A stretch of DNA of 64,000 nucleotides, taken from positions 32,001 through 96,000 of the IMG/VR virus record IMGVR_UViG_3300032216_001891. The stretch is one strand, 5' to 3'. Shown piece by piece: positions 15,538 to 61,013 of the stretch; within the stretch, counting starts at the first letter, position 1; every line of letters starts with the position of its first letter. The DNA comes from a virus (Duplodnaviria > Caudoviricetes). A program made the position numbers and the translations under genes. The notes under the pieces were generated by a model. That model was not told the DNA's origin, made no database searches, and saw only the letters and a program-made list of their open reading frames with translations.

Positions 15538-15549
15538 TTGGGAACAGCA

Positions 15550-35498: not shown

Positions 35499-35527
35499 TT
35501 GATTCCTTTGGCTTTTTCTGCTATAAT
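35499..35527 (+). promoter_or_regulatory. Sigma70-like promoter at head of the modification cluster
   Basis: TTGATT-17 nt-TATAAT with TGn extension; ATG 6 nt downstream of the -10. Confidence 0.75.
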
Positions 35528-35533
35528 TTCACT

Positions 35534-35881
35534 ATGAATGAAATTGAAAAACTCACCAGCGAAGTTCGTCGAGCAACTGACTATCAAATCAATAGGCAAA
35601 TTTTACGTGAAAAGATCTTAACTGATCTGCATGTACCATTCAATGGTGGGCTATTTTTGGTAACACAGGAATTAATTGCTTTTGTGTATGCCTGGCAGGG
35701 CACACAGGACATTTGGCCGTGGGACGGAGGTCAAGACATGTATATTGAAGATGTTTATCACAATCCCATACACATCGCCGATCGTAAAGAATTTTATAAA
35801 ATTATTTGCCAACACTATCAACAAGTGATGAACACATGGCACCAACAACATGCACACCTTAAAAAAATACGAAAAATCTAG
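35534..35881 (+). CDS. Hypothetical protein
   Basis: MNEIEKL start; overlaps the next gene. Confidence 0.65.
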   Translation: MNEIEKLTSEVRRATDYQINRQILREKILTDLHVPFNGGLFLVTQELIAFVYAWQGTQDIWPWDGGQDMYIEDVYHNPIHIADRKEFYKIICQHYQQVMNTWHQQHAHLKKIRKI

Positions 35882-36674
35882 AGGAGTAGTGGTATTTGCA
35901 TTCAACACTGCTACAGTGGATTATGTTGCCATAGCAGATTGCTCTAGTAGATTAACTACACAGCATTTACAGTTGCCCATTACACTGATCACTGACCACT
36001 CTGCTGACCCCAAATTTGCATACGATGAAATCATAAGAATTGATGCCATTGCCGGCAATGTTCGCAACGACTTGAACAATCGTTCAGTGGAATGGCGTAA
36101 TTTTGGTAGATACCTGGCATACCAACTATCGCCCTATGATGAAACTGTGTTGTTGGATACCGATTATCTAGTGCTGGACCACAGCATATCAAAACTGTGG
36201 AGTACAGAATTTGATTACCAATTGATGCATGTGAATAGAACAGCAAAGGGCATAGACGCCAGCGTCATGGGAGTGAATTCTTTGCCATTTGTTTGGGCCA
36301 CTGTGGTGCTATTTAGACGCAGTGAACGTGCTAGACTGTTTTTTGATTTAATCGGACGTGTACAAAGAAACTATTCTTACTACAAACAGTTGTACAGTAT
36401 ACACGAGACAAGTTATAGAAATGATTATGCTTTTGCCATAGCCAATATAATATTGAACGGGTACACAGTGAATGCATTGCAAGGCATTCCTTGGAGCATG
36501 TTCACAGTGGATGAGAAGATAGAACGGATGACGCTGGCGGATTCGCAAATTAGAATTCACCACCGAGACTACGCAATAGTTGTACCTCGCAGTAATATAC
36601 ATGTCATGGATAAAGAATATTTACAAAGCGATGATTTTCAACAACTAGTGGAGACTGTGTGTGAGTCGGCATAA
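35850..36674 (+). CDS. Glycosyltransferase, GT-A fold (GT8-like)
   Basis: LSPYDETVLLDTDYLV DxD motif; RNDYAF. Confidence 0.7.
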   Translation: MHTLKKYEKSRGVVVFAFNTATVDYVAIADCSSRLTTQHLQLPITLITDHSADPKFAYDEIIRIDAIAGNVRNDLNNRSVEWRNFGRYLAYQLSPYDETVLLDTDYLVLDHSISKLWSTEFDYQLMHVNRTAKGIDASVMGVNSLPFVWATVVLFRRSERARLFFDLIGRVQRNYSYYKQLYSIHETSYRNDYAFAIANIILNGYTVNALQGIPWSMFTVDEKIERMTLADSQIRIHHRDYAIVVPRSNIHVMDKEYLQSDDFQQLVETVCESA

Positions 36675-37512
36675 AGAACAGCAGGGATTCGTTACCTTTG
36701 CACAAAATACACAAGATGTAAATTACCTAGAACTGGCCTACCTACAGTGCTTGAATGTCAAGGCCACACAAAAGAACAACAGTTATGCTGTCATAGTGGA
36801 TGCTAAAACTCGTGCTCTAGTAGAAGACCGTCACTGCAACACTTTTGATTACATTGTTGAGCTGCCACAGGATTACGATGAGGTCTACGGCAACGGAAAA
36901 TTTGCCAATGAGTGCCAAGTGTTTACTCTTACTCCGTTTAAAGAAACTGTCAAGTTGGAAAGCGATCTGTTGTTTACACGAAGCATAGATCACTGGTGGA
37001 CCGCATTTAGATTACGCGATGTTTGTCTCAGCACCGGTGCTAAAAACTATCGCGGCATAATATCTGGTGTAAGAAAATATCGACAGTTGTTTGATGAAAA
37101 TAATTTACCCGATGTGTACAACGGCTTGATGTATTTTAGATATTCAAGACAGGCCGCAGATTTTTTCAACACAGCTCAATTAATTTCACAGCATTGGGAA
37201 TTTTATCAAGAGCAATTGAAGAACTGCAACGATGAAACCCCCAGCACAGATGTGATATACGCCATTGCCGCATTGACAGTGGGCACAGACTCTGTCACCA
37301 TGCCCACCATGGACTTTATAAATTTTGTACACATGAAGTCGGGCTTCAACGGCTGGAGTGACGCACAAAGTTGGTTAGACACAGTGGTGCATGAACGTGA
37401 CGGAGATGTTGTACGTATTAATAATTTGAATCAATATCATCCTGTACACTATCATGACAAAACCTACGCTACTAGAGAGTTAACAGAATATTATGAATCA
37501 AGAAGAACGTGA
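36661..37512 (+). CDS. Glycosyltransferase, GT-A fold (GT8-like), paralog of previous gene
   Basis: LTPFKETVKLESDLLF (ExD), YNGLMYF, STDVIYA, FVHMK. Confidence 0.68.
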   Translation: MSRHKEQQGFVTFAQNTQDVNYLELAYLQCLNVKATQKNNSYAVIVDAKTRALVEDRHCNTFDYIVELPQDYDEVYGNGKFANECQVFTLTPFKETVKLESDLLFTRSIDHWWTAFRLRDVCLSTGAKNYRGIISGVRKYRQLFDENNLPDVYNGLMYFRYSRQAADFFNTAQLISQHWEFYQEQLKNCNDETPSTDVIYAIAALTVGTDSVTMPTMDFINFVHMKSGFNGWSDAQSWLDTVVHERDGDVVRINNLNQYHPVHYHDKTYATRELTEYYESRRT

Positions 37513-37852
37513 TTTTTGGGCGGAAGTCGAAAGTTTAATCTGCCCTGCTCCTGCGGTTGAAATTGAATATAGATTGCACTACAACGAATCAGGTGAGATC
37601 GTCATGTGCAGCATGGTGGATCATCCCGAAACCTCTGCCCACGTTGTGGTATCAAAAGACGAATACGAACGTTACTTTGATTATTGTGTAGTCAAAGGGC
37701 AATTGACAAAGATAGACAAAAGTGCCAGCTATAGTGTAAAATTAACTAAATCCACTGCCGGCAGCCGGACAGTGAAAAACCACGCTGGCATTGTTTTAGA
37801 GCCGGGCGAATCCTACACAGAAACAGAATATTATGACCACAGAAATCATTGA
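37493..37852 (+). CDS. Hypothetical protein
   Basis: 119-aa ORF overlapping both neighbours. Confidence 0.6.
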   Translation: MNQEERDFWAEVESLICPAPAVEIEYRLHYNESGEIVMCSMVDHPETSAHVVVSKDEYERYFDYCVVKGQLTKIDKSASYSVKLTKSTAGSRTVKNHAGIVLEPGESYTETEYYDHRNH

Positions 37853-38735
37853 TGTTGCAGATTTAGACTGCATTTTTTTAACCTATGATGAGCCCAACCG
37901 AGAAATCAATTGGATTCGAATCCAAAACATGATACCATGGGCAAAACGAGTGGACGGAGTCAAGGGATCAGATGCAGCACACAAGGCCGCTGCTAGAGCC
38001 AGCGATACTGATCGTTTTATATTAATTGACGGCGACAACATTCCCGATCCTGATTTTTTTAATTTACAGTTGGCACTCAACGATGCCAATCGAGACTGTG
38101 TATTTAGATGGCGGGCTAGAAATCACATCAATGGACTCATGTACGGCAACGGTGGCGTCAGCTGTTGGACACAAGAGTTTGTGGAGACTATGTGTACACA
38201 CGAGGCCACTGATGGTGCCGCAGAAAATGATGTGGAGTTTTGTTTTTACCCCAATTATTGGGCTATGTCGGACTGCTATTCAACCACTTACCCCAATGCC
38301 TCACCATTTCAAGCATGGCGAGCTGGATTTCGTGAAGGTGTTAAAATGTGCTTGGATCGTGGTGCCAAACCCAGCTTGCAAGAATTTGAACGCCGGGTAC
38401 ACAATCGTAACTATGATCATTTGTGCATATGGCAAACGGTAGGCCTTGATGTTGACAACGGTTTTTATAGTATATTGGGTGCTAGAACAGGTACTTACAT
38501 GACCATGCTGACCGATTGGGATTATAAAAAAGTGCAGGATTTTTCTGTATTAGAAAAAATTTGGGAAAACAACAGCAAGGAAGATCAAGATGCTGATCGT
38601 TGCAGTGAACTAGGAGACATACTACGTCGCAAATTGGGATTGCCTATTGTAGACCTGTCGGCAGAGGCCAGCAGATTCTTTAAACATCATTACAAATCGC
38701 AGTTTAAAAATTTGGGACCAATGGTTCGTGAATAA
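37833..38735 (+). CDS. Glycosyltransferase-like protein, GT-A fold
   Basis: RVDGVKGSDAAHKAAA..FILIDGDN (DxD), AWRAGFRE; similar to the C-terminal domain of 53949. Confidence 0.65.
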   Translation: MTTEIIDVADLDCIFLTYDEPNREINWIRIQNMIPWAKRVDGVKGSDAAHKAAARASDTDRFILIDGDNIPDPDFFNLQLALNDANRDCVFRWRARNHINGLMYGNGGVSCWTQEFVETMCTHEATDGAAENDVEFCFYPNYWAMSDCYSTTYPNASPFQAWRAGFREGVKMCLDRGAKPSLQEFERRVHNRNYDHLCIWQTVGLDVDNGFYSILGARTGTYMTMLTDWDYKKVQDFSVLEKIWENNSKEDQDADRCSELGDILRRKLGLPIVDLSAEASRFFKHHYKSQFKNLGPMVRE

Positions 38736-39408
38736 ACCTACTGTAATTGCTTTTTATCCTGGAGCCGGGGGTAATCGTTATCTTAGATATCTTACAGGTA
38801 AAGAATACCTAACCCCTGATATAACATATGATAATAAGTTCACAGATCAAAAATTTGAATTTAGGTATCTATTAGAAAAAGTAAAAGTAAATCAAGAATT
38901 TATACTAACACATTGTTTAAATTATTCTCACATCAATGAACAGTTAAATCCTAAAAAAGTAATTATGATAAATTCTGATTTTAAAAAAAGTCTAAGAAGA
39001 GAGTGGTGGTTGAATGGTAATAACTTATACAAACAAAAAGTACAATTAGTAAATCAAGATTGTATGTTGACTACTTATAATAATATTAAAGATCCAAATT
39101 GGCCTAATATTTTGACAGTTGAGGACATGCTTCCTGACCATAAAAAAGAAACAATGGAAAAGATGTCAAAATACAATGTACCAGAAGAATTAAATTCTGC
39201 TTGGGCAACTGTCAGCTGGCATCATGCATACTATGAAAAATATCCAGTTGAGTTGGGATACGCTGAAATTGCCAATGATCAAGAATTTGTAAATTTTATG
39301 GAATATGAATTAAACAAATATGATAATGAATACTTTAATTTTAGTTGGGATATATTTAATCGGTATGGACCAAACGCAACTATAAACGAGTTATATCTTG
39401 ACAAATAA
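38728..39408 (+). CDS. AT-rich hypothetical protein, possibly sulfotransferase-like P-loop
   Basis: N-terminal IAFYPGAGGNRY loop; YNNIKDPNWP motif; visibly low GC. Confidence 0.5.
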   Translation: MNKPTVIAFYPGAGGNRYLRYLTGKEYLTPDITYDNKFTDQKFEFRYLLEKVKVNQEFILTHCLNYSHINEQLNPKKVIMINSDFKKSLRREWWLNGNNLYKQKVQLVNQDCMLTTYNNIKDPNWPNILTVEDMLPDHKKETMEKMSKYNVPEELNSAWATVSWHHAYYEKYPVELGYAEIANDQEFVNFMEYELNKYDNEYFNFSWDIFNRYGPNATINELYLDK

Positions 39409-40786
39409 AAGTGATTTTATGTCTGCTGCGGAGCAGATGCAAGCAAAACTTGGCAACTCACTCTGCTTGGCCAAATGGCAACAGGTGAGTCTACATCTTC
39501 CCACCGGTCTCAACAATTCATGTTACCATCCTCCCTTGCATCCAATAGATGCCTCGGTGTTACAAGATAATCCCAGTGCATTACACAACACCGAGTATAA
39601 AAAATCTCAACGCATCATCATGTTGAAAAATGAAAAACCCAGTGAATGCAGTTATTGTTGGAACATAGAAGCACATGGGCAATTGAGCGATAGACATTAT
39701 CGTTCCAGCGAACCCTGGGCCGTAGAACATTACGAAGCAATCAAAAACTCTCGAGGAGACGAAGATGTTGTACCTAGTTATGTGGAAGTTAATTTTAATC
39801 ATGCCTGCAACTTGGCTTGTAGTTATTGTAGCCCCCAATTCAGTAGCACCTGGCAAGCTGAGGTTGATCGGTGGGGCGGTTTCCCTACTAGTCGTGTCCA
39901 TAATGATCCTAGCCACTTTGTGGGTCGTAATAGACCTATACCAGCTAGTCAAGATAATCCTTACGTAGATGCATTTTGGCGTTGGTGGCCAGAACTGTAT
40001 CCCAAACTGCGACACTTTAGAATGACCGGTGGTGAACCACTAATGGATCGGAACACTTATCGAGTGTTTGATTATGTGTTGGCCATGCCAAAACCCGATT
40101 TGCATTTAAATGTCACCAGCAACTTCAGTGTGGAACCGGTGCTGTTTGAACGATATTTGGGCTATGTAAAACAGTTATGTACAACACAGATAGAACATTT
40201 CATGCAGTATGTCAGCTTGGATTCTGGCAACATCAAACATGCAGAATATATCCGACACGGGTTGAATATGAATCGACTACATGAATATGTCAACAGATAC
40301 TTGACAGAAGTTCCCTATCGCAACAGTCTAACATTCATCATCACCATGAATAATTTAACTGTGCTGGGTCTACAACGTCAACTGCAATGGATACTGGATT
40401 TAAGAAAACGTCACAGTACCACATACCAACGTGTTTGGTTTGATACTCCCTTGCTACGTACACCCACATGGCAAAGTTTACAAATACTGCCACCGGTGTA
40501 TGTGGGTGTGTTAGAACGTGTGGCTGACTGGATGGAACTGCGTTTAGAAACAGCAGAAGATCCATTTCACGGATTCAAAGATTACGAAGTACAACGCCTA
40601 CGCAGAGACATAGCATGGATGCAGGAAGGTTGCAAGTTGGACCCCGACTATGTTAAACTGCAACGTGCAGACTTTTATCGTTTCTTCAACGAGCACGACA
40701 AAAGACGTCAAACAGATTTTTTAACTACTTTTCCCGAAATGCGTGAATTTTGGAAAGAATGCGAATACCATGCCAAAAATACATAA
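39398..40786 (+). CDS. Radical SAM enzyme with N-terminal twitch-like domain (1)
   Basis: CNLACSYC, GGEP; N-terminal CLAKW..SCYH..CSYC. Confidence 0.88.
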   Translation: MTNKSDFMSAAEQMQAKLGNSLCLAKWQQVSLHLPTGLNNSCYHPPLHPIDASVLQDNPSALHNTEYKKSQRIIMLKNEKPSECSYCWNIEAHGQLSDRHYRSSEPWAVEHYEAIKNSRGDEDVVPSYVEVNFNHACNLACSYCSPQFSSTWQAEVDRWGGFPTSRVHNDPSHFVGRNRPIPASQDNPYVDAFWRWWPELYPKLRHFRMTGGEPLMDRNTYRVFDYVLAMPKPDLHLNVTSNFSVEPVLFERYLGYVKQLCTTQIEHFMQYVSLDSGNIKHAEYIRHGLNMNRLHEYVNRYLTEVPYRNSLTFIITMNNLTVLGLQRQLQWILDLRKRHSTTYQRVWFDTPLLRTPTWQSLQILPPVYVGVLERVADWMELRLETAEDPFHGFKDYEVQRLRRDIAWMQEGCKLDPDYVKLQRADFYRFFNEHDKRRQTDFLTTFPEMREFWKECEYHAKNT

Positions 40787-42125
40787 AGAAACAGATTTAG
40801 AATATCGACGCAGAGTAATTGACATCAAGAGTGAAAGCTTCTGCGGCGCGAAATGGTACAACGCCACTGTATGGCTGGGATCGGGTCAAACCACCAGTTG
40901 TCACCATCCCTTGCCACATCAAATAGACATCAACGAGATTCGTACAAACCCCAAAGCCATACACAACACACAAAAGAAAAAAATGGAACGCGAACAGATG
41001 CAACGCGGAGAACGGCCCGCCGGTTGCGAGTACTGTTGGAAAATAGAAGACATTGGAAGAGACAACATAAGTGATAGAGTTTACAAAACAGTTATATATT
41101 CAGACAAGGACTTAAGAGATGCATTCGCTCAGCCAGCCAGCACAGATGTGGATTTACAAACGCTTGAAATCGCTTTTGATCGCACATGCAATTTTGGGTG
41201 TAGTTACTGTAACCCTGCTTTCAGCAGCACTTGGGTTAAAGATATCAACTCCTTGGGTGCTTATACCGGTCTCGTTTCAGACGGCAGGAATCATTTTACT
41301 CATAATCATGCAAGTAGTCAGCTTTATCAATTTGGTGAGCGTAATCCTTACGTTGAAGCGTTCTTTGCATGGTGGGAATCAAGTCTCCACAGCACACTAC
41401 AGGAGCTTCGACTAACTGGAGGAGAACCTCTAATGAGTGCAGAAACTTGGAGATTGCTGGATTGGTTTAAACACAATAATGCGAATCCGGCAATGCGGCT
41501 TGCAATCAATAGCAACTTGGGCGCCAAACAGGAGTTAATAGATAGATTAATTGCAGCAACACAACATATTGAACATTTTCATTTGTACACCAGTAATGAA
41601 AGCATGGGTACACAAAGTGAATACATCAGAGACGGGCTGGTGTGGGACACGTGGATCAACACAGTGGATCGAGTATTGACCAATGGTAAAATAGAAGGAT
41701 TTCACATGATGTGTACCATCAATGCCCTGTGCCTAGATAGCCTTGACAGTTTCTTGGAGTGTTGCATGAACTGGAAACGCAAATATGGTGCTGACTTCCC
41801 CACCTTCTCACTAAATATATTGCGATTTCCAAGCTTTCAGAGCGCCTTGGTATTGCCGGACAGCATACGCAAGCAATATCAATCAAAGTTACAAACATGG
41901 CTAAATGCAAACACAGGGGATCCGTTACTGCATCAATTCGAAATCAATCAAGTACAGCGTTTGATAGATTATTTAGATGTAGTCAAAACTCCGCATGCGG
42001 GTGCAGCAGAGCAATCGGTATTACAACAAGACTTTAAACAATTTTACACACAATATGATCAACGCAGAAATAAAAACTTTGCAGAGACATTTCCCGACCT
42101 AGCAAAATGGTATAACTCACTATAA
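40770..42125 (+). CDS. Radical SAM enzyme with N-terminal twitch-like domain (2)
   Basis: CNFGCSYC, GGEP; CGAKW..SCHH..CEYC. Confidence 0.88.
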   Translation: MPKIHKETDLEYRRRVIDIKSESFCGAKWYNATVWLGSGQTTSCHHPLPHQIDINEIRTNPKAIHNTQKKKMEREQMQRGERPAGCEYCWKIEDIGRDNISDRVYKTVIYSDKDLRDAFAQPASTDVDLQTLEIAFDRTCNFGCSYCNPAFSSTWVKDINSLGAYTGLVSDGRNHFTHNHASSQLYQFGERNPYVEAFFAWWESSLHSTLQELRLTGGEPLMSAETWRLLDWFKHNNANPAMRLAINSNLGAKQELIDRLIAATQHIEHFHLYTSNESMGTQSEYIRDGLVWDTWINTVDRVLTNGKIEGFHMMCTINALCLDSLDSFLECCMNWKRKYGADFPTFSLNILRFPSFQSALVLPDSIRKQYQSKLQTWLNANTGDPLLHQFEINQVQRLIDYLDVVKTPHAGAAEQSVLQQDFKQFYTQYDQRRNKNFAETFPDLAKWYNSL

Positions 42126-43441
42126 TGGCAGATAACATAGAAGACTACTACAAAGATTACAATTACGGTGCACGTAAGCCGGTGTATATCAAAGAAGAAG
42201 CGTTACGCACAGATCAACTTGATAGACTGGTCAAGAGCAATGAGTTTTGTATGATTCCTTGGATACACATGCATGCTTTTCCCGATGGACGTGCCTATCC
42301 CTGTTGTTTAAGTGAGCCCGGACATCCCATTGGAAATCTTAAAACTCAAACCATGCGAGAGATTTGGAATGATGCACCGCTAAAACAAATGCGAGTCAAC
42401 ATGCTGAACAACACGCCGTCAAAAGAATGTACTAAATGTTACGAGCAAGAAAACAGTCGCTTGTTCAGCATGAGAGAAAGTGCCAACAAAAACTTTGGTC
42501 ACCACATTGGCCTAGTGGACAACACCCTGCCGGACGGTTCTTACGAAGATTTCAAACTGCGTTACTACGATATTCGCTTCAGCAACCTTTGCAATTTTGC
42601 ATGCAGAACCTGTGGTGGAATCTTCAGCAGTAACTGGTACAAAGACGAAAAAGCTGCAGGATGGGATCCCAAGCATCCACAGATAATGTATGCAGGCCGA
42701 GACAAGGGCGACATGTGGCAACAGATGCAAGAACACATTCCACATCTTGAACAGATCTATTGGGCCGGCGGCGAACCCTTGATCATGGAAGAGCACTGGA
42801 AAGTACTAGATGAGTTGGTTCGTCGTGAAATGTTTCATGTACGATTAATTTATAACACCAACTTCAGCGAACTTAAATTCAAAGGTCGAGACGTACTTGA
42901 AATGTGGAAACTGTTTGATTGTGTCAGTGTAGGAGCCAGTCTTGATGGCAGTTATGCTAGAGGAGAATACATACGTAAAGGTCAAGTGTGGAAAGAAACT
43001 GTAGAGAATCGTGAACGCATGTTGGCAATATGTCCCAATGTAGATTTTTATGTATCCAGTACTGTCAGCATGATGAATGTGTTGCATATCACAGACTTTC
43101 ACAGAGAGTGGGCGGATCTAGGTTTGTTACGTCCGATGGATTGGAATATTAATATACTGCAACACCCACATCGCTACAGAGTAGATGTACTGCCCAAACA
43201 TTTAAAACAACAGGCACAAGACAAAATTGAAGAACATCTGGCGTGGTTACGTCCCTTGGATACATTGTCTCGTGCCACATCGGGTTACGAGGGTGTTGTT
43301 AACTTTATGATGCAACAGGACAGCACACATGAACTAAAGAGTTTTTTCCATACAAACGATATTATTGATCGTGTACGCAATGAAGATTTTTTTAAAATAT
43401 TTCCGGAACTAAATGACATTCAGCAATACAAAACTACCTAG
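42125..43441 (+). CDS. Radical SAM enzyme with N-terminal twitch-like domain (3)
   Basis: CNFACRTC, GGEP; CMIPW..PCC..CTKC. Confidence 0.88.
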   Translation: MADNIEDYYKDYNYGARKPVYIKEEALRTDQLDRLVKSNEFCMIPWIHMHAFPDGRAYPCCLSEPGHPIGNLKTQTMREIWNDAPLKQMRVNMLNNTPSKECTKCYEQENSRLFSMRESANKNFGHHIGLVDNTLPDGSYEDFKLRYYDIRFSNLCNFACRTCGGIFSSNWYKDEKAAGWDPKHPQIMYAGRDKGDMWQQMQEHIPHLEQIYWAGGEPLIMEEHWKVLDELVRREMFHVRLIYNTNFSELKFKGRDVLEMWKLFDCVSVGASLDGSYARGEYIRKGQVWKETVENRERMLAICPNVDFYVSSTVSMMNVLHITDFHREWADLGLLRPMDWNINILQHPHRYRVDVLPKHLKQQAQDKIEEHLAWLRPLDTLSRATSGYEGVVNFMMQQDSTHELKSFFHTNDIIDRVRNEDFFKIFPELNDIQQYKTT

Positions 43442-46903: not shown

Positions 46904-47109
46904 TAACAGTAACGGTGCCTTATACACGAGACATAGTACTATATTCAGACATGCAAATATGGGCAATAGACCATTGCTCAAGTTTTTTAACATGTAATTT
47001 CATACACGACGAATTAGATAGAACCAATTGGCACACTGAGTTTCAGTTCTGTGACGAGGGTGAAGCGGCTTGGTTCAAATTAAAATGGGCAGGTTTAATC
47101 AATGAGTAA
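46900..47109 (+). CDS. Small hypothetical protein
   Basis: ATGA overlap with the upstream stop; ends AAWFKLKW. Confidence 0.55.
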   Translation: MITVTVPYTRDIVLYSDMQIWAIDHCSSFLTCNFIHDELDRTNWHTEFQFCDEGEAAWFKLKWAGLINE

Positions 47110-51806: not shown

Positions 51807-51814
51807 AGGACCCT

Positions 51815-52654: not shown

Positions 52655-52857
52655 GCGACACTGCTGTTCGCAGCCTAGCCAAAGCTGTCAGTTGGAGAGT
52701 AACTGGAACTGTTGATACATTTCTTATCAGTTGGTTGATCACCGGTGAAGTGCTGTTGGCATCGGGCATAGCACTGACTGAAATAATCACCAAGATATTT
52801 TTATTTTGGGCACACGAGCGAGTGTGGAATCGCGTTACTTGGGGACAGCAAGACTAA
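52651..52857 (+). CDS. Small membrane protein, DUF2061-like
   Basis: RSLAKAVSWR...HERVW pattern. Confidence 0.75.
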   Translation: MSDTAVRSLAKAVSWRVTGTVDTFLISWLITGEVLLASGIALTEIITKIFLFWAHERVWNRVTWGQQD

Positions 52858-53950
52858 GATTAGTCTCCAACTCCTGCCAGCAGTGATTTAAAAACTCACT
52901 GCTGTAAAATAAATTGTAGTTGTGATTTAATACAGGAGTCATTTCTCTCAACATCATTTCAAGATCTCGATCGCTGTATCCGCAAATTTCTTCAATTACA
53001 TCCGCCACAGCAGTCATGCGTAGAATGGGATCTTCTATATCATCGTAACGTTCATCAAACCAACGACCAAATGTTCTGAAACCGTAACTGCGTAGGTACT
53101 CCAAGTTGTGTGCCGGCCCCACTAGCACAAATGGCATGCGGCTGACAATGGGTTTAAATATTTTTTCAGTTAAATGACATTTGCGATCCCAGTAACAAGT
53201 TTCTGTAACCACATAAACAAAACTTTCCTGTGTTTGTTCCACAGCACTTAATACAAAACTGTGATTGGGTATTGACTCGTGGTCTTGATAATCCACACGC
53301 AATGGCAACTGAACTCTGTCAATGTTGGCGATAGCTCGTTCTGCAAGAGCCGGGCATACGAATGTTGAATTTCTCAAGTTTTCTTGATACGTGCCACCGT
53401 CGGGACAGACATCGTTGTAACTTACATATCCGCACCCAAGTATATCGCGTTCCGCTAGTTCGCCAATCAATAAACTGCGGTACACTCGGGCGCCACTGGT
53501 TAGTCGATTAAATGTGATGTATTTTTTCTTTAACTTTCTTTGTTCGGGTGCAATTAATTGAGAGTTGTAATGATAGCCGCGAAACCAATCGTTTGCAGCA
53601 AAAGCATGATGAAAATAATAAACAACAGGGCAACTGTATCGTTCTTGTATTAGATCCACCGAGTTGGAATTTTTTTCGGTTGTAACCAATATAAACTCAT
53701 TGCCATGTAAAAAATTGTTGCATACGTGATCAAACAAGGGATAATTAAATTCTCCCAGTATGGGTTCTTGATCATAAAATACAAATAGTGGCCCACGTTT
53801 TCCTGGATAATGACTCATGTTGTTCATTAAGAATTCAAAATTTTCTGGCTGAGTTGATCCATAAGGTATTAGGTAAAGTAGTCTTGGATCTGTTACAATA
53901 GTGTTTAAATACGAAAAAATATTTTCGTAATGACTGTGGATATTATACAT
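52835..53950 (-). CDS. Glycosyltransferase-like protein (ITEK-motif family)
   Basis: VVTET..HLTEKIFKPI..PF..LRSYGFRTF..FDERYD. Confidence 0.55.
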   Translation of the reverse strand: MYNIHSHYENIFSYLNTIVTDPRLLYLIPYGSTQPENFEFLMNNMSHYPGKRGPLFVFYDQEPILGEFNYPLFDHVCNNFLHGNEFILVTTEKNSNSVDLIQERYSCPVVYYFHHAFAANDWFRGYHYNSQLIAPEQRKLKKKYITFNRLTSGARVYRSLLIGELAERDILGCGYVSYNDVCPDGGTYQENLRNSTFVCPALAERAIANIDRVQLPLRVDYQDHESIPNHSFVLSAVEQTQESFVYVVTETCYWDRKCHLTEKIFKPIVSRMPFVLVGPAHNLEYLRSYGFRTFGRWFDERYDDIEDPILRMTAVADVIEEICGYSDRDLEMMLREMTPVLNHNYNLFYSSEFLNHCWQELETNLSLAVPK

Positions 53951-56900
53951 GTTTGATGTTTTTTATTGGGGAACTAAACCCGGTTTATTTGCTTTTGAAC
54001 AGCCTGCTGACAATTTAGATCATGCGGCTACCTTGTCACGAACAGGGCACTACTGGTATATTTATGGGGACAATGACTACACAGGATTTGATTTTGATTA
54101 TCAACCAGCGCCGTGGGAAAGTCAACACATACATGTTTGGCCCAGTCAATGGCAAAGAAACGGTGGAGTGTATCTAGCCAATCAAAACACAGTACACTGT
54201 AGAGAGTGGCATTTTAGGACTGAACAACAGGTGAGGAGACGACCCAACAGAGACTTATGGATCATACCCAGCAACACAGATGTCACAGCGTTTGATTTTT
54301 CGTGGCACCCCGATCCACTAGAGCCCGACTATGAATATCATTTCCCCACACAACACCAACCAGCCGGAGGTCCTGTGTATCAAGGATCAGCTGGTATAAA
54401 ATTATCACAAGATCAAACAGCTCGTGCTGTGCAGTTAATGGAACACTGGCATGTACCCCTTAATATTGATTCTGCTCAATTTGATTTTTCGTGGCACCCC
54501 AATCCACTGGACCCTGCTTATATCTATCAGTTTGCCACTCAGTGGTATGAAGAAGGTGGCCCAGTGTATACAGTTACCGGAGCCACTGAAGTCAAGTACA
54601 TGGATGAGCCTAGATCGCAGATAAACTCCAGCCGAGATAACTGGACAATACTGCATCCTATAATCGAAGACCGCTTTGATTGGAGTTGGCGTCCGCACCC
54701 AAAAGATCCTCCTTACACGTATGTGTTTGGTAATCAGTGGCACAGTCCCGAACGCATGCCCACAGTGGAATATCATGTCCCTGGAGCCACAGAACGCAAA
54801 TACATGAGCATGGTGGCCACCTTGGCACCTGATAAAACACATTGGAAATGTCTCGAGCATATTCAAGGTTTTGATTACAGCTGGGTGCCGGATCCGCTAG
54901 AGCCGCCTTATCGATATGTGTTTGGTAACCAGCATTGGCCTGCCACCATCATGCCCACGTTGACCTACACTGTGCCTGGAGCAACACAAGAAAAGTTTGT
55001 CGATGCTCCTGCGGCTCGATTGGCAGGAGGCATGGAGAACTGGAAAATATTTGAAGACATTGACCATGACCTATGGGACTGGACCTGGCGACCCAACCCG
55101 CGAGATCCTCCGTACACGTATGTATTTGGCAATCAATGGAATCCGCCCGAATACAAAGTTAGTGTACAGTACGAAGTAGAAGGTGCAACCGAACGCAAAT
55201 ACATGGAGTCGCGTACACAGCGGTTACCGCAACCGGAACAATTCAAAAACAAGTTACCAATAGACCAATTTGATTATTCATGGGAACCCAATCCGTTTGA
55301 CCCTCCATTCACCTATGTGTTTGGCAATCAATGGAACCAAGCCAGCCTAGAGCCCACAGTGGAATATCATGTCCCTGGAGCCACAGAAATAAAATACATT
55401 GATGATTTGGTGGCAACGGTGGCACCGTTGATGACCAATTGGGAGATACTTGACGATGTTAAACAGTTTGATTACAGCTGGCGTCCAAATCCCTTTGACC
55501 CACCTTACCGATATGTATTTGGTAACCAGTGGATGGCTCCCGAACAACGCCCTGCTGTGTGTTATGTTGCACCGGGGGCTGAAGAAATAAAATACATGGA
55601 TGAACCCAAGGCACAGCGACACGGCGACCCTGATAGGTTTGATACACATTACGATTGTGAATTTGACTACAGTTGGGAACCGGATCCGGGATCACCTCCT
55701 TACCGATATGTATTTGGTAACCAGTGGTATCCCGCCGAGATCATGCCCACAGTGGAGTATGCAGTGGCTGGAGCTACTGAACGCAAGTTTATGAGCGAGC
55801 CGCGGGCTAGATTGCTACCCTCAAGCGGCAACTGGATAACACACTGTGTGGCTGACTTTGATTATTCGTGGCAACCGGAACCCAAGAGCCCGCTGTATAT
55901 ATTTGTGTTTGGTAACCAACATTGGCCTGCACAAAAGATGCCCACTGTGGAATATCATATGCCCGGTGCAACTGAACGCAAATACATGGACCGGCCCAGG
56001 GCAGTTCTCGTACCCGATAAACAGTTATGGGGCATACCAGAGGAAGTCGATGAAAACAATATTGACTTTAGTTGGGTTCCCGATCCCGGCAATCCTCCTT
56101 ACATTTATCACTTTGGTACTGAGTTCCAAATGAGTGTGGGATTGACCTACACTGTGCCCGGAGCGACCGAGCCCAAGTTTGAAGGCGAAATACCACGTTT
56201 GGTCAAAGAACACGCAGCAATTGATGTGCTGGATATATTCTTTATTGATCGCAACAATGCCACAGCACAGTCACGCTTTGATCGATTAAAAAACCTCTAT
56301 CCTAAAATACAAAAAGTTCGCTTTGCTAATGACATGATGGCAACAATACAACGCTGTATCACCAAAGCTCGCACAAGTAAATTTTGGGTCATTAGTAGCG
56401 AATATAATTATGACCAATTTGATTTTACATGGCATGCTGAGCCGTGGCAAGGTTACATGACGCATGTGTTTCCAAGTCAGCATCAAAAGTGGAGCGACAC
56501 CTACTTGATCAACAAGTGGGAATTTGAGCGTCACAGCACTTGGGCCAAGTCCTTGGAAGAATTCCCCAACTTGAACTTTGTCAAAGATCAAACGGTAAAC
56601 AAGTCTGAGAATAGATATAATATTTACTATGTTGATCATGGCAACCAAGTCAGTCAGCATCAATACGATTACCTACGCAGTGATGTTGTTACCGATGTCG
56701 ACATCATCAAGACACGTTTTGTTGACAGCTACTTGGAAACATTCAAACGCATCATGTCCACAGCCGAAACTGAGTATGTTTGGATCATCAACAGCATTTG
56801 CGATTACACCTGCGGATTTGACTTTACTTGGGAACCGGAACCGTGGCAACGTGAGATGATACATGTATTCCCCAGTGACGCACAAAAGCGTGGCGATACA

Positions 56901-57974
56901 TTTCGTATACATGTGGAATCATTTAAACAACAAATGATTGAACTAGAACTGCTGGATTGGTTCCGCGTGATCAACTATGTTGAAGATCACGCAGTGCCTC
57001 GTTTTTCAATACCGGTACACTATTATGAATCGGACGATTTGGTCACTGAAATAAAAAACTACCAATTCCAAACTCCGTACGTGTTATTTACTAACCAAAA
57101 AGATATACAAATTGAAAGTTCAGAATGCTTGTGGAGTCCCCAAGACCGTGCAGTAGCCAGGTGTAGCCGGTCCGGTGCTACTGTGTTAGTACCCCGTGAC
57201 ATTAAGGTGGATTTGAAGTCACAAATCTACGATTATCCCTACATCAAGGACTCGGTTTATAGGATTAACGACTACTTTATTAACAAATTTCATCCGGGGT
57301 TAGATATCGTATACATTAGTAACGGAGAACCCGACGAACTACGTTGGTATGAACATTTATGCTACATGAGCAACACCACTGACATAGAATGGGTGCGTGG
57401 TGTCAACGGTAGAACAGCCGCCTATCAAGAAGCTGCACGTAGAAGCCGCACACCTTGGTTCTTTGCTGTGTTTGCCAAATTGGAAGTTTTAGGCAACGAG
57501 TTCCCTTGGTTTGATTGGATGCCGGACTATTTCCAAGAACCCAAACACTATATCTTCAACAGCCGTAATCCTGTGAATGGCTTGGAATATGGTCACCAAG
57601 GTGTAATAGCATATAACAAGAGATTGGTATTAGAGAATAATGCTCCAGGAATTGACTTTACCTTGAGTCAACCACATGAATCAGTTCCCATACTGTCTGG
57701 TGTAGCACACTTCAATCAAGATGCTTGGATGACTTGGAGGACTGCGTTCCGCGAAGTGGTCAAACTCAAACATTTCATGGCGGTAGAACCCACAGTGGAA
57801 ACAGAACATAGATTAAACACTTGGCTGACCGTGGCCGAAGGCAATTATGCTGAATACTGTTTGGCCGGTGCCCGGGATGCTGTGGGGTATTACAATGAAG
57901 TTGCGGGAGATTATGAACTACTAAAACTGAGTTTTGACTGGGCCTGGCTGAAACAACGTTTTGACAATAAATAA
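53949..57974 (+). CDS. 1341-aa repeat protein with several degenerate GT-A-like domains
   Basis: Ten FDYSWxPxP..PPYxYVFGNQW..PGATExK repeats; C-terminal domain resembles 37833 (NPVNGLEYG, TWRTAFRE). Confidence 0.65.
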   Translation: MFDVFYWGTKPGLFAFEQPADNLDHAATLSRTGHYWYIYGDNDYTGFDFDYQPAPWESQHIHVWPSQWQRNGGVYLANQNTVHCREWHFRTEQQVRRRPNRDLWIIPSNTDVTAFDFSWHPDPLEPDYEYHFPTQHQPAGGPVYQGSAGIKLSQDQTARAVQLMEHWHVPLNIDSAQFDFSWHPNPLDPAYIYQFATQWYEEGGPVYTVTGATEVKYMDEPRSQINSSRDNWTILHPIIEDRFDWSWRPHPKDPPYTYVFGNQWHSPERMPTVEYHVPGATERKYMSMVATLAPDKTHWKCLEHIQGFDYSWVPDPLEPPYRYVFGNQHWPATIMPTLTYTVPGATQEKFVDAPAARLAGGMENWKIFEDIDHDLWDWTWRPNPRDPPYTYVFGNQWNPPEYKVSVQYEVEGATERKYMESRTQRLPQPEQFKNKLPIDQFDYSWEPNPFDPPFTYVFGNQWNQASLEPTVEYHVPGATEIKYIDDLVATVAPLMTNWEILDDVKQFDYSWRPNPFDPPYRYVFGNQWMAPEQRPAVCYVAPGAEEIKYMDEPKAQRHGDPDRFDTHYDCEFDYSWEPDPGSPPYRYVFGNQWYPAEIMPTVEYAVAGATERKFMSEPRARLLPSSGNWITHCVADFDYSWQPEPKSPLYIFVFGNQHWPAQKMPTVEYHMPGATERKYMDRPRAVLVPDKQLWGIPEEVDENNIDFSWVPDPGNPPYIYHFGTEFQMSVGLTYTVPGATEPKFEGEIPRLVKEHAAIDVLDIFFIDRNNATAQSRFDRLKNLYPKIQKVRFANDMMATIQRCITKARTSKFWVISSEYNYDQFDFTWHAEPWQGYMTHVFPSQHQKWSDTYLINKWEFERHSTWAKSLEEFPNLNFVKDQTVNKSENRYNIYYVDHGNQVSQHQYDYLRSDVVTDVDIIKTRFVDSYLETFKRIMSTAETEYVWIINSICDYTCGFDFTWEPEPWQREMIHVFPSDAQKRGDTFRIHVESFKQQMIELELLDWFRVINYVEDHAVPRFSIPVHYYESDDLVTEIKNYQFQTPYVLFTNQKDIQIESSECLWSPQDRAVARCSRSGATVLVPRDIKVDLKSQIYDYPYIKDSVYRINDYFINKFHPGLDIVYISNGEPDELRWYEHLCYMSNTTDIEWVRGVNGRTAAYQEAARRSRTPWFFAVFAKLEVLGNEFPWFDWMPDYFQEPKHYIFNSRNPVNGLEYGHQGVIAYNKRLVLENNAPGIDFTLSQPHESVPILSGVAHFNQDAWMTWRTAFREVVKLKHFMAVEPTVETEHRLNTWLTVAEGNYAEYCLAGARDAVGYYNEVAGDYELLKLSFDWAWLKQRFDNK
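54240..56190 (+). repeat. Ten intragenic ~200-nt repeats
   Basis: Protein-level repeats; identical DNA blocks 54758-54794 = 55352-55388 and 55503-55532 = 55698-55727. Confidence 0.85.
57966..57973 (+). promoter_or_regulatory. Late promoter AATAAATA
   Basis: 5 nt before ATG 57979. Confidence 0.55.
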
Positions 57975-57978
57975 TAAT

Positions 57979-58647
57979 ATGAGATCCAGTGAATTTATAA
58001 CATCCAACAGAGTAGCAGATTTAACTCCTGCTCAATTTAAACGTGTCTTTGAAAGTATTATTGACCCTAATATTATACTAGAAGCAGACATTCCGCCGCA
58101 GGCTGCCCAACAGGTTAAACAGGCATCTGGGTCAACTCTACAAGCTATTATGTCTCAACCAGCGGCCGCTGTACAAAACTTTGATGCAAAAATAGATCAA
58201 CTAGAAAAACAGGCCTCTGCTAAATTTGGCCCACAAGTGATGCAACATATAAGAAACTACCGACGCTGGGCTAAAAGAAATCCATTGACGCAGGCCGCAA
58301 TTTTAGCTGCTGTTAGTGTTGTAGTAAGTTTAGTAGCTCCTGAAGGTGCCGCTGGCGTGGCAATTACTGCCATTGCTGCAGGGTTTTTGCAAACAGTTGA
58401 TGAATTGGTATTGGGTAAAAAAGCCAGCGAAGCAGTTTCACGCGGAGTAGAAACCGGCGCTGTAGTTGGAGGTATAGGTACTTTTCTAAATTGGGCTGCA
58501 GATACAGAACTGGTAAAAAGTGCCGCACATTGGTTTGGTGATGTAGTTGGCGATGTAGCAAGGAATACTCACGCAGTCAAAGCAGTTGCTAAGGTAGGAG
58601 TTAATGCTCTTGCCAATCGAGTGCAAAGTCCTTTTACTTCGTATTAA
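57979..58647 (+). CDS. Hypothetical protein with hydrophobic helices; possible internal head protein
   Basis: Starts MRSSEFI; Ala/Val-rich hydrophobic segments. Confidence 0.6.
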   Translation: MRSSEFITSNRVADLTPAQFKRVFESIIDPNIILEADIPPQAAQQVKQASGSTLQAIMSQPAAAVQNFDAKIDQLEKQASAKFGPQVMQHIRNYRRWAKRNPLTQAAILAAVSVVVSLVAPEGAAGVAITAIAAGFLQTVDELVLGKKASEAVSRGVETGAVVGGIGTFLNWAADTELVKSAAHWFGDVVGDVARNTHAVKAVAKVGVNALANRVQSPFTSY

Positions 58648-58659
58648 CGCAAATACTAG

Positions 58660-59004
58660 ATGCGTATAAATGAAATTTCCGTACCTCAATATAAAGAAAT
58701 AGAATTTGTCTGTGCCAATGCCGAGCATCCTGACGCTACAGATCCCGCTGTACAACGAAAACTGTATAGAGAATTACAAAAAATCCCCGGAGTAATACCT
58801 TTATATCAAGATTGGACCGATTACAGTGAAGGTCAATATAGTTTAAGTGCTATATATAAAGACCGTGCTGTTCGTGGTAAAATTTTATCACTGGCTCGGC
58901 AGTTGGGCGTTGATGTTGACTTGGAACAAACAGTGGATGGGGACTATGTTGATCGTGCCTTAACAGGTAGTCACGAAGGACAAATTAACGCAAGTAATTC
59001 TTAA
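58660..59004 (+). CDS. Hypothetical protein; possible internal head protein
   Basis: Starts MRINEI; CAAATA box just upstream. Confidence 0.55.
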   Translation: MRINEISVPQYKEIEFVCANAEHPDATDPAVQRKLYRELQKIPGVIPLYQDWTDYSEGQYSLSAIYKDRAVRGKILSLARQLGVDVDLEQTVDGDYVDRALTGSHEGQINASNS

Positions 59005-60091
59005 CGCTATTAGCGACCCGTTCAACTTCTAAATCGGTGAGTTCAGGATAAATCGGTAGGCTGATTGCTTCTCTCGAAAACGCTGTAGATTCTCTAAACA
59101 ATTCTCTAGCATAGTCAATATAGTCATAGCCTACGGGCAATTCAAACAAGGGCGTGTCATAATGGAAACGTGAGTCAATTTCACAACTCTGTAAGTAATC
59201 ACGCAGGCCATGACGTTCACTCAGCCGTATTACAAATTTACTCCAAGCCGAAGTTACGTGTTCTCCGGGTAATACTACATCTACATATTCAGCGAGTTCT
59301 TGTGTGTAGTATTCGGCGATCTCCTGTCTACGTGTCTGCCAAGCATCAAAATATTTGAGTTTGACCAACATCTGAGTTGCATCGCTTTCGCTCATTTTAC
59401 TGTTGGTGCCAAATCCTTGATGCCCCATGTGCTTGCCATTGTCACGCAGGTCCATTACATCTTCATACATGACTTGACTGTCGGTGAGTACCATGCCACC
59501 CGATCCGTAGTTGTTTAGATTCTTAGTGGGATCAAAACTCAACACACTGATGTCACCGAGACTGCCCGAGGGTTGATCCTTGTACCTGGCACCAAAACTC
59601 TGTGCAGCATCTTCTATCACACGTATGTTGCTGTTGAAAAACTCTGTTTGCAGTCTAAATCTATCATAGTCTACAACATGCCCAAACAGGTTGGCATACA
59701 TGATACAGTTAACACCAGCTCCGGTTAGGGCCATGTCCATGCTTTCTAAATCTATTAGTGCTGCATCATCAGTGTCGCAAAACACCGGAGTATTGCCGGT
59801 ATACAGCACCGAGTTAATAGTGGCTGCAAAACTCAAGGTGGGAATTAACACACGAGATTCCTGTGGCAATGTCACTTGTTGTGCAAAAATCAATCCCTGT
59901 GTGGCACTGTTCACTGCAACTGCATATTCTCGACCACATCGACGGGCTATGGCTGTTTCAAACTGTTGAGTACATTCACCATCCAACACCTGCCCGGATC
60001 GGTACACTTGATCCACGGCATCAAGTATCTCTTCACGCAGAGTCAAGTATTGACGATCAACGCCGAAGAAGGGTATCTGTGATCCACTCAT
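58985..60091 (-). CDS. DegT/DnrJ/EryC1/StrS PLP-dependent sugar aminotransferase
   Basis: AVNSATQGL, IEDAAQSFG, SFDPTKNL (PLP Lys), GGM, SLPIYP. Confidence 0.92.
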   Translation of the reverse strand: MSGSQIPFFGVDRQYLTLREEILDAVDQVYRSGQVLDGECTQQFETAIARRCGREYAVAVNSATQGLIFAQQVTLPQESRVLIPTLSFAATINSVLYTGNTPVFCDTDDAALIDLESMDMALTGAGVNCIMYANLFGHVVDYDRFRLQTEFFNSNIRVIEDAAQSFGARYKDQPSGSLGDISVLSFDPTKNLNNYGSGGMVLTDSQVMYEDVMDLRDNGKHMGHQGFGTNSKMSESDATQMLVKLKYFDAWQTRRQEIAEYYTQELAEYVDVVLPGEHVTSAWSKFVIRLSERHGLRDYLQSCEIDSRFHYDTPLFELPVGYDYIDYARELFRESTAFSREAISLPIYPELTDLEVERVANSVKNYLR

Positions 60092-61013
60092 GATATTTTT
60101 TAAATCCTGACTCAATGTCTGTGGTGCCACGATAACCAAAGTCTTCGCCAGCACGTATGTTACTTAATGTTCCTCTTGATGGGAATCTAGGATTGGCATC
60201 GACAATTTTTATTCTGCCACCACCGGCTATGGCGACAGCCAATTCAGCAGCCTCTACCAAACTTCTGGCCTCACCTCTAGTTATGTTGTATGTTCTACCA
60301 CTGCTGTTGAAATTGACAGCGGCACGTACAATACCCTCCACTACATCATCCACATAGGTGAAATCCAAACGTTCTCTAGCACCACACACAGTTAATTCTT
60401 CATTGCGTATGGCCGAGAGCAAGAATCTACTTACAACTCTATCAACAACATCATGCGGGCCATACACAGCACTGGGCCGAATCACAACATGGTCAATGCC
60501 AGCTGTTCTACAAAGATCACGTGTGAGTGTTTCACCAGCGAGTTTTAATATTCCGTAGATGCCGCGTGGTCGGCACTGCATATCTTCATAGGCCAAGGGA
60601 GCAAAGTCACCGTACACCATACTGCTACTGATATAGACAAATCTACGCAAGCGAACCTGTTCACTGGCACGTAGTAGATTTATCAAGCCCTGTGTCAGCA
60701 CTTGACTGCCTTCAGTGGGATTCAAATCCACGGCCTTGGCTCGAGGATATGCTGCACAGTGTATAACCACATCCGGGCGACATTCTTCAAACGCAGTTAC
60801 GACATAATTGTAGTTTCTAATGTCTACATTGTGTATGCTCTGTGTTTGAATACGATCAAGACGTTGTTGATGTAGGGGAGTTAATTCTGATTCAGGTATA
60901 ATACCATAGTTGGTGAAGTTGTCCAGCACACAGACTTCATGTCCTTGCTGTTCCAATAGTCGTACTATGTTGTGTCCAATAAATCCAGCACCGCCGGTTA
61001 CTAGAAATTTCAT
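60057..61013 (-). CDS. NAD-dependent NDP-sugar epimerase/dehydratase
   Basis: TGGAGFIG, SSSMVYG, YGILK, DFTYVDD. Confidence 0.92.
   Translation of the reverse strand: MKFLVTGGAGFIGHNIVRLLEQQGHEVCVLDNFTNYGIIPESELTPLHQQRLDRIQTQSIHNVDIRNYNYVVTAFEECRPDVVIHCAAYPRAKAVDLNPTEGSQVLTQGLINLLRASEQVRLRRFVYISSSMVYGDFAPLAYEDMQCRPRGIYGILKLAGETLTRDLCRTAGIDHVVIRPSAVYGPHDVVDRVVSRFLLSAIRNEELTVCGARERLDFTYVDDVVEGIVRAAVNFNSSGRTYNITRGEARSLVEAAELAVAIAGGGRIKIVDANPRFPSRGTLSNIRAGEDFGYRGTTDIESGFKKYHEWITDTLLRR

Follow-up and report, generated by a model that had tools for sequence, protein, structure and literature searches.

Virion proteins of Mimivirus (fibril glycans) and of mycobacteriophages (capsid and tail) are decorated by virus-encoded soluble glycosyltransferases (GTs), with amino sugars supplied by short-chain dehydrogenase/reductase (SDR) and DegT enzymes. 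To our knowledge, neither glycosylation system contains a radical S-adenosylmethionine (SAM) enzyme, a carbamoyltransferase or a partner peptide. In the MftA–F pathway, the C-terminal Val-Tyr of MftA is the source of mycofactocin, which a GT2 enzyme then glycosylates, and the known carbamoyltransferases of the TobZ/NodU/CmcH/HypF group act on sugars, antibiotics or HypE, the last being a partner protein carbamoylated by HypF at its C-terminal residue. We know of no member of this family described with a dedicated partner peptide of 33 amino acids (aa). Pelagimyophages and cyanomyophages were reported to carry functionally uncharacterised cassettes of GT (mostly GT8) and radical SAM genes among or behind their tail-fibre genes (PMC7029224). 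Here we describe a block of enzyme genes at 35.5–61.0 kb of a 64,000-nucleotide (nt) stretch of Caudoviricetes DNA (the window, i.e. the whole stretch analysed), which comprised bases 32001–96000 of a 154.5-kb IMG/VR phage fragment (IMGVR_UViG_3300032216_001891). CheckV completeness of the fragment was 44%, implying a genome of ~350 kb.

The block joined five radical SAM genes of one catalogued family, several GT-like genes and a carbamoyltransferase gene paired with an unannotated 33-aa gene (Table 1). Its most economical reading, in which we infer every chemical step and the acceptor, is on balance probably the right one: a self-contained cytoplasmic pathway that assembles and edits a sugar-containing product on a phage-encoded acceptor (peptide or virion protein), with no lipid carrier. 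The SDR and the DegT aminotransferase would supply a nucleoside diphosphate (NDP)-amino-sugar, and a kinase/nucleotidyltransferase (NTase) fusion would make a nucleotide-activated donor, maybe 3′-phosphorylated. Four to six soluble GTs (GT8-like, GT2-like and GT-B) would build the chain, each of the five N-terminal-twitch radical SAM enzymes would add one C–H-activating edit, and a tailoring sub-module (two SGNH-like proteins, the 33-aa peptide and the carbamoyltransferase) would finish or prime the product. As acceptor, either the invariant Tyr-Lys tail of the peptide or a protein of the virion, for instance the adjacent fibres, could serve.

Scanning IMG/VR with one radical SAM protein yielded 80 loci (47–91% identity, contigs up to 354 kb), which came from many different metagenome projects, judged by their IMG/VR record numbers. 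The order of ~18 genes was kept throughout: fibre genes, five leading genes, five radical SAM genes, the gene at 47102, SGNH, SGNH, carbamoyltransferase, kinase/NTase, GT-B (minus strand) and repeat protein. The DegT-SDR pair lay just past the block in all five near-complete relatives (92–100%, 320–354 kb). An earlier note, made from the letters of this stretch alone, had proposed co-occurrence across relatives as a check, and the synteny bore it out. Enzyme identities so high among relatives of many projects would be easier to reconcile with an acceptor that the phage encodes and conserves than with host glycans, which vary.

The only cultured relative found was Ralstonia phage RsoM2USA, whose block genes were all annotated as hypothetical; DNA similarity to cultured phages consisted of one 150-nt match, to this phage. 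It carried two sub-modules, a GT module with one radical SAM gene beside the fibre and sheath genes and, elsewhere in the genome, a unit of radical SAM, SGNH, peptide, SGNH and carbamoyltransferase. The RsoM2USA paper did not mention the block genes, and they were not among its ten virion bands.

All five radical SAM proteins matched the NCBIfam family N_Twi_rSAM (NF033640) at 282–401 bits against a curated cut-off of 170 bits, in agreement with the five twitch enzymes counted in the earlier note, and shared its N-terminal four-Cys twitch, CX3CX2C and GGEP. In radical SAM 3, the Pfam SPASM match (residues 42–106) lay ahead of the radical SAM core (151–326). In an alignment of 16 paralogues and orthologues, C42, C61, C102 and C105, C156, C160 and C163 (CX3CX2C) and G215-G216-E217-P218 (GGEP) were invariant. 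The five paralogues were mutually ~22–31% alike, whereas each had a median identity of 61–74% to its own orthologues in the 80 loci, indicating that the five genes are old and non-redundant. The earlier note had drawn an analogy to aminoglycoside pathways and BtrN, which held at superfamily level only: the BtrN-type family was not among the Pfam or NCBIfam matches of the block proteins, and the radical SAM enzymes belong to a separate family with the twitch at the N-terminus, not the C-terminus. Against the mycofactocin radical SAM model these enzymes scored 17–20 bits (cut-off 265), and literature searches for a function of N-terminal-twitch radical SAM enzymes gave nothing relevant.

Members of NF033640 also occurred in genuine bacterial chromosomes (Bacteriovoracaceae, Hyphomicrobiales and Bacteroidota), there singly or in pairs, whereas the phage has five anciently diverged members in a fixed row. 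On a Bacteriovoracaceae chromosome (858-kb contig, L105:5900–14200), two divergently transcribed N_Twi_rSAM genes had a pair of ABC-2 type exporter genes and two PMT_2 (GT-C) genes as neighbours; in this locus the family may have its cellular role, in the synthesis of surface glycans, and three other bacterial loci had no common theme. Several phage-block genes were also found at about 50% identity on contigs of metagenome-assembled genomes (L094, L098, L171, L172, L136, L141 and L173) labelled Rickettsiales, Haliscomenobacter, Legionellales and Polynucleobacter. Several high-identity matches in such genomes carried the block in full. Wrong binning of phage contigs is the probable cause.

The 33-aa gene was present in 72 of the 80 loci and encoded 33 aa in all but one. 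The peptide ended in DPFIY plus one basic residue, nearly always Lys and in rare cases Arg or His, and W3, E14, Y17, R18, L21 and D28–Y32 were invariant. Its codons varied at fixed amino acids (e.g. all four codons for Pro29, and five or six for the leucines), indicating that the gene is real and that the tail is under purifying selection. In RsoM2USA, an unannotated 31-aa gene ending in DPFIYK (MG752970.1 125894–125986; L085:25895–25987, minus strand) lay in the 108-nt gap between ORF200 and ORF201. A wider search, with a DNA pattern encoding KRDPFIYK and the stop that follows, gave at least 120 viral stretches. With tblastn, the 33-aa peptide had no match in cultured phages at that database size. 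Among the matches listed with at least 1 kb downstream, a carbamoyltransferase gene (product 31–68% identical to that of the window) followed on the same strand in 58 of 63, and started within 30 nt of the peptide stop in 39 of the 63. Variants of this wider family (L174–L253, IMG/VR) were 33–51 aa long with very different N-termini, a few of them hydrophobic enough for a membrane span. They all shared ...(K/R)(K/R)L.EL(K/R)KRDPFIYK and usually stood directly before the carbamoyltransferase gene.

The carbamoyltransferase itself was as the earlier note had named it, with Carbam_trans_N (1.6e-36, 126.9 bits, cut-off 24) and Carbam_trans_C (2.8e-48, 164.1 bits, cut-off 27) both above the Pfam cut-offs; the NodU equivalog NF041651 (cut-off 1000) was not reached at 127.4 bits. 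A predicted complex of enzyme and peptide scored a median of 0.71 (runs 0.00, 0.71 and 0.74) versus 0.00 for the best control. Of 80 solved complexes, 58 attained the mark of 0.71, as did 2 of 110 mismatched pairs; these counts are a rough guide here, as self-made alignments were used. Contact agreement between the runs was at least 45%, and the predicted local distance difference test score (pLDDT) of the partner was at least 51. Contacts involved the peptide helix (9–24) and tail (29–33) and, among others, enzyme residues 10–11, 131–132, 161–180 and 207–223; by analogy with TobZ, residues 10–11 and 131–132 presumably sit at the Kae1-like acceptor site. The peptide thus appears to be an obligate neighbour and a predicted binding partner of the carbamoyltransferase, and its linkage and modelled docking make it a second candidate acceptor besides a virion protein.

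Of the three SGNH proteins in the earlier note, two were supported as SGNH-like: the families of 48159 and 49002 had an invariant GDS and later invariant Asn and His residues. The profile of the 48159 family had no match in PDB, and 49002–49670 had Pfam matches below cut-off (DUF6071, 2.1e-5; Lipase_GDSL_2, 0.0094). The third, 51117–51806, was not supported. The kinase/NTase fusion stood as described. Its kinase half scored 29 bits against Pfam APS_kinase (adenosine 5′-phosphosulfate kinase; cut-off 21.1) and 24.7 bits against the apsK equivalog, below the cut-off of 138.7, and the profile of the whole fusion matched APS kinase (1e-4) and nicotinamide mononucleotide adenylyltransferase (NMNAT, 2.5e-5) in PDB. 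GLPGAGKTT, NADDVRR, WQPWHAGH and ISATKIR motifs were present. In some relatives (L016:17898–18703 and L053:17736–18553) the halves were separate adjacent genes, with the NTase first in L016. The possible sulfation suggested earlier was not supported: family searches of the block proteins gave no match to ATP sulfurylase or sulfotransferase, and the NTase half was NMNAT-like, not sulfurylase-like. By analogy with 3′-phosphoadenosine 5′-phosphosulfate (PAPS) and coenzyme A (CoA) synthases, a nucleotide-activated, possibly 3′-phosphorylated donor is more likely than sulfation.

The DegT assignment was confirmed by its Pfam match, and the protein carried LSFDPTKNL (the SxxxxK context of the pyridoxal-phosphate lysine). 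Its best NCBIfam match was PseC, below cut-off, and no specific equivalog was reached; relatives aligned from about residue 21–26, placing its true start probably near 60091. For the adjoining gene, the NDP-sugar epimerase part of the earlier claim was retained, as a GalE-like SDR with GGAGFIG, SSSMVYGD (GalE-type) and YGILK, and the 4,6-dehydratase part was dropped, since the Asp-Glu pair of such enzymes was missing. TIGR01181 gave 110.6 bits (cut-off 365).

Six GT-like proteins had been counted, a fair number, but a GT-B fold was supported for one of them and the rest depended on marginal profile matches or paralogy. The GT-B protein (52835–53950) could not be assigned to a CAZy family, and PDB profile searches with its family and with that of 37833 gave chance-level rows only. 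The gene of its paralogue (44638–45621) was missing between radical SAM 4 and 5 in L009, L016, L032 and others. The 36661 family, which bears an NGLMYF motif, matched glycogenin-1 marginally (E 1.4e-3) over residues 2–111 (~110 only), with ESD replacing DxD. It was related to the 35850 family by hhalign (probability 97.8%, E 8e-13), whose own profile had no PDB match; neither of the pair had a Pfam match. Thirteen of 25 orthologues of 37833 had weak Glyco_tranf_2_3 matches, around DGD only (best 1.3e-4, all below the 27-bit cut-off), and its Atlas neighbours included a viral cluster named 'Glycosyltransferase 2-like' (score 0.99). Between the 37833 and 36661 families hhalign gave no overall relationship (probability 3%), an NGLMY motif being all that they shared.

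The C-terminus of the 1341-aa protein was a paralogue of 37833–38735 with DGD replaced. Its repeats had the consensus FD[FYW]SWxPxPxxPPYxYVFGNQW...PTVEYHVPGATExKYM, and a short Rossmann-like stretch stood before each of two later variant copies (FDFTWxxEPWQ...HVFPSQ). The repeat motif occurred nowhere else in the 154-kb record, and the repeat protein had no match in Pfam, PDB or Atlas.

Table 1. Features of the window (positions in the window; strand and evidence where reported)
Feature	Position	Strand	Evidence or remark
Baseplate hub/lysozyme	7304–11692		PHROGs
Baseplate wedge	12148–15537		PHROGs
Tail-fibre proteins	29208–31199, 33186–34571		PHROGs
Promoter-like site, TTGATT-N17-TATAAT, sigma-70-type	35499–35527	+	6 nt before ATG at 35534
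First block gene, ~115 aa, no known family	35534–35881	+	conserved in 66 loci and RsoM2USA
GT8-like GT-A protein with DTD motif	35850–36674	+	homologue of 36661 family
GT8-like (glycogenin-like) GT-A protein	36661–37512	+	marginal PDB profile match
Small protein, 119 aa, without family match	37493–37852	+	in 67 loci
GT2-like protein, invariant D66-G67-D68	37833–38735	+	most conserved non-radical-SAM gene
Accessory gene	38728–39408	+	absent from 80/80 relatives
Radical SAM 1, N-terminal twitch	39398–40786	+	NF033640 289.5 bits
Radical SAM 2, N-terminal twitch	40743–42125	+	NF033640 312.9 bits; 51% identity to RsoM2USA ORF202
Radical SAM 3, N-terminal twitch/SPASM	42125–43441	+	NF033640 401.3 bits
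Radical SAM 4, N-terminal twitch	43413–44648	+	NF033640 334.1 bits
GT-B paralogue (C-terminal part), accessory	44638–45621	+	BLASTP 1.8e-9 to 52835–53950
Radical SAM 5, N-terminal twitch	45614–46903	+	NF033640 282.8 bits
Cyclophilin-like barrel, helical insert of ~105 residues; core gene	47102–48181	+	model pLDDT 87.6
SGNH-like, GDS block I	48159–48929	+	paralogue of 49002–49670; invariant G6-D7-S8
Unannotated 33-aa gene: basic helix and C-terminal DPFIYK tail	48904–49005	+	between SGNH genes; AGGAGA 7 nt upstream
SGNH/GDSL-type	49002–49670	+	PDB profile: GDSL lipolytic protein, E 4.7e-5
Carbamoyltransferase, TobZ/NodU/CmcH type	49651–51126	+	Pfam N and C domains
Accessory, GAS instead of GDS, without family match	51117–51806	+	in 3/80 relatives
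APS-kinase-like P-loop kinase and NMNAT-like HxGH nucleotidyltransferase fusion	51788–52654	+	
GT-B fold glycosyltransferase	52835–53950	-	model pLDDT 88.9; 34 Foldseek PDB matches E<=1e-3, all GT-B
1341-aa protein: ten ~65-aa tandem repeats and C-terminal GT2-like domain	53949–57974	+	
Accessory gene	57961–59004		comes and goes among relatives
DegT/DnrJ/EryC1 aminotransferase	58985–60154	-	Pfam PF01041 2.3e-76, 257.8 bits (cut-off 19.8)
Extended SDR, GalE-like NDP-sugar epimerase/oxidoreductase	60057–61013	-	Pfam Epimerase 8e-48

The PHROGs baseplate and fibre genes upstream showed that the block follows the fibres, and the enzyme families named in the earlier note at 35.5–61.0 kb were present there; between the baseplate wedge and fibre genes lay one open reading frame (ORF) of 4301 aa (15538–28443). 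From 35.5 kb on, ~22 plus-strand genes ran with the head-to-tail overlaps also noted before. On the minus strand were 52835–53950 and, past the 1341-aa protein, DegT and SDR, then ThyX and DHFR. The listed ORF of the first gene began at GTG 35456, and relatives aligned from about residue 20–29. A 74-aa ORF in the gap after radical SAM 5 (46885–47109) was in none of the relatives, and PHROGs had no match for ten unassigned proteins.

The product of 47102 was examined by structure prediction. VIA-align placed its model near many cyclophilins (Z 7–8.6, ~130–145 aligned residues), and its top Atlas match was a peptidyl-prolyl isomerase (TM 0.55). Against PDB, Foldseek had no match and the family profile gave chance-level rows only. 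With middling Z values the cyclophilin fold is a lead, not proof. An assignment as a GT was rejected, as there was no Foldseek PDB match and the best structural neighbours were cyclophilins.

The cyclophilin-like gene bears on the explanation that survives best beside the pathway on a phage-encoded acceptor, a system like those for ribosomally made peptides that are modified after translation (RiPPs). Here the 33-aa peptide would be the true substrate: the radical SAM, SGNH and carbamoyltransferase enzymes would modify its DPFIYK tail and the GTs would then glycosylate it, so that a glycopeptide would result, or a small molecule or cofactor if the product is then cleaved, on the model of mycofactocin. 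We regard this as possible, though not what we would expect; it overlaps the favoured reading, except that here the whole pathway centres on the peptide. It would account for the invariant tail under purifying selection, for the tight gene linkage and for the predicted docking into the carbamoyltransferase (0.71 vs 0.00 for controls). In RsoM2USA the radical SAM-SGNH-peptide-SGNH-carbamoyltransferase unit stands apart from the GT module, and the cyclophilin-like gene, of an X-Pro-binding fold, is the second gene upstream of that for the peptide, in which Asp-Pro is invariant. SPASM/twitch radical SAM enzymes are classic peptide maturases, and HypF, a relative of the carbamoyltransferase family, modifies a C-terminal residue of a protein. 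However, neither a RiPP recognition element nor a leader peptidase or exporter came out of family searches of the block proteins, and peptide substrates are not known for the N-terminal-twitch family. Most peptide-carbamoyltransferase pairs stand without radical SAM genes nearby, and a DegT, an SDR and six GT-like genes exceed the usual needs of peptide decoration. It is rather doubtful that the Tyr-Lys tail serves as primer or scaffold for the entire pathway, which would then yield a carbamoylated, radically edited glycopeptide or a derived small molecule.

A sigma-70-type site (at least 10 of 12 positions) occurred in the same place before the block in 35 of 57 distinct relatives, versus 2.5% of control segments. 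In nine of those 35 the -10 box lay exactly 6 nt before the ATG, suggesting a leaderless first gene. Several relatives had a hairpin and T-run (terminator-like) between the last fibre gene and the promoter, and the structural genes upstream were preceded by ATAAATA boxes, unlike the block. The sigma-70-type promoter and the hairpin indicate that the block is probably a separate unit and not simply part of the fibre operon, and from these signals it is likely read by a host-type polymerase. A generic promoter and terminator scan across the block gave no excess over shuffles. An ATAAATA at 48826 was rejected as a late promoter of the peptide gene: it lies within conserved E-N-K-Y codons of the upstream gene and vanishes in relatives whose Lys codon is AAG. 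In one sub-clade (L007, L008, L014, L065, L069 and L075) the consensus promoter was inside an inverted repeat, GGTGTAGAGTAGTATAAT...TACTATCTACACC, ~25–60 nt before the first gene of the block, which could be an operator or a 5′ hairpin.

A host-type promoter in place of the ATAAATA box would suit remodelling of the host surface, in which the enzymes would act soon after infection on lipid-linked O-antigen or capsule precursors at the inner membrane face, rely on the host flippase and polymerase, and block superinfection. O-chain modification was favoured for the GT8 genes of the pelagimyophage 'host recognition cluster', as the authors' hypothesis (PMC7029224). The Bacteriovoracaceae genes beside an ABC-2 exporter and two PMT_2 genes point the same way, and the few longer peptide variants with a hydrophobic N-terminus could tether the carbamoyltransferase to the membrane. 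We consider this explanation unlikely, because no conserved block protein had a membrane-spanning stretch and because the enzymes are ~60–75% identical across a clade from many projects, whereas host surface glycans vary fast. The same soluble set of sugar-handling enzymes agreed with two statements of the earlier note, that no flippase- or polymerase-like membrane protein is evident and that the pathway is cytoplasmic.

ThyX (5.9e-42) and DHFR (3.8e-15) were encoded at 61010–62189 (minus strand), directly after the SDR, so that this minus-strand unit mixes nucleotide metabolism and amino-sugar genes. DNA hypermodification, with the GTs, kinase and radical SAM enzymes decorating a modified base of the phage genome, is highly improbable: T4 beta-glucosyltransferase was among the GT-B fold matches, ThyX and DHFR are adjacent and P-loop kinases and radical SAM enzymes occur in known thymidine hypermodification pathways, but the T4 match was one of 34 generic GT-B matches, the ThyX product is ordinary dTMP, and genes for DNA-binding, glycosylase, TGT-like or hydroxymethylase proteins are absent from the block.

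Several points also weigh against the preferred reading, a cytoplasmic pathway acting on a phage-encoded acceptor. NF033640 is a catalogued family without a known reaction or substrate, and the gene contexts of its bacterial members are mixed. No curated family threshold was reached by any of the six GT-like proteins, and the cluster contained no RmlA/GlmU-type sugar-1-phosphate nucleotidyltransferase. An N_Twi_rSAM gene was present in only 12 of 44 longer peptide loci among the matches listed, so the peptide-carbamoyltransferase pair, mostly found without radical SAM genes, may have an independent job. One of the three complex runs scored 0.00, and the model supports binding while fitting a substrate and a small subunit or tether equally. 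Virion proteins, the most plausible target according to the earlier note, are suggested by position, and the block's own promoter weakens that argument.

When phages encode enzymes that glycosylate their particles or their hosts, host range, immune recognition and superinfection are affected, and the block is among the largest and best-conserved unexplained enzyme sets in environmental jumbo phages. With five members of a radical SAM family that has no known reaction, its product would define new enzymology. If the pathway is indeed primed by the peptide tail, the phage would make a peptide-primed glycoconjugate of an undescribed kind, built by carbamoyltransferase, SGNH, radical SAM and glycogenin-like GT proteins, and the radical SAM family would gain its first substrates. 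The peptide-carbamoyltransferase pair, which has spread much further than the operon, forms a small testable unit. Both sub-modules exist in reduced form in the cultured RsoM2USA, which makes the question testable at the bench now.

Among known systems, the host recognition cluster (PMC7029224) likewise lies by fibre genes; it is described as hypervariable and non-syntenic, whereas the block is strongly syntenic over 80 loci. Phages with that cluster are T4-like and of 140–250 kb, and the clade of the window is of ~320–355 kb with RsoM2USA as its nearest cultured relative. Four cultured cyanophage and pelagiphage carbamoyltransferases were checked and had no DPFIYK motif beside them, whereas that of the window has an adjoining DPFIYK peptide. 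The cultured Pelagibacter phage Mosig (L295, MT647606.1 65020–69063) had consecutive genes for an ArnB-like aminotransferase, a MoaA-like radical SAM enzyme, a carbamoyltransferase and a methyltransferase, which resemble the tailoring module on a smaller scale but include no DPFIYK peptide. The carbamoyltransferase of the window has the Kae1-like plus YrdC-like two-domain architecture of TobZ, NodU and CmcH, and carbamoylation of a partner C-terminus in HypF-HypE parallels the predicted docking of the peptide tail.

With the virion glycosylation systems of Mimivirus and mycobacteriophages the block shares soluble GT-like proteins and a putative amino-sugar supply. It resembles the mycofactocin pathway in a short peptide whose C-terminal tail contains Tyr, in SPASM-type radical SAM enzymes and in a GT2-like protein, and differs in lacking an MftB-like recognition protein, a peptidase and a flavoenzyme and in its N-terminal auxiliary cluster domain. 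Literature searches for such an enzyme combination in jumbo phages gave nothing relevant, and neither family libraries nor PDB contained a characterised phage pathway of this composition, as the earlier note had supposed. The composition, with five radical SAM enzymes of an unstudied family, a peptide-carbamoyltransferase pair and cyclophilin-like and tandem-repeat proteins, has no characterised counterpart; the kind to which it belongs, virus-encoded glycan machinery beside fibre genes, is already known.

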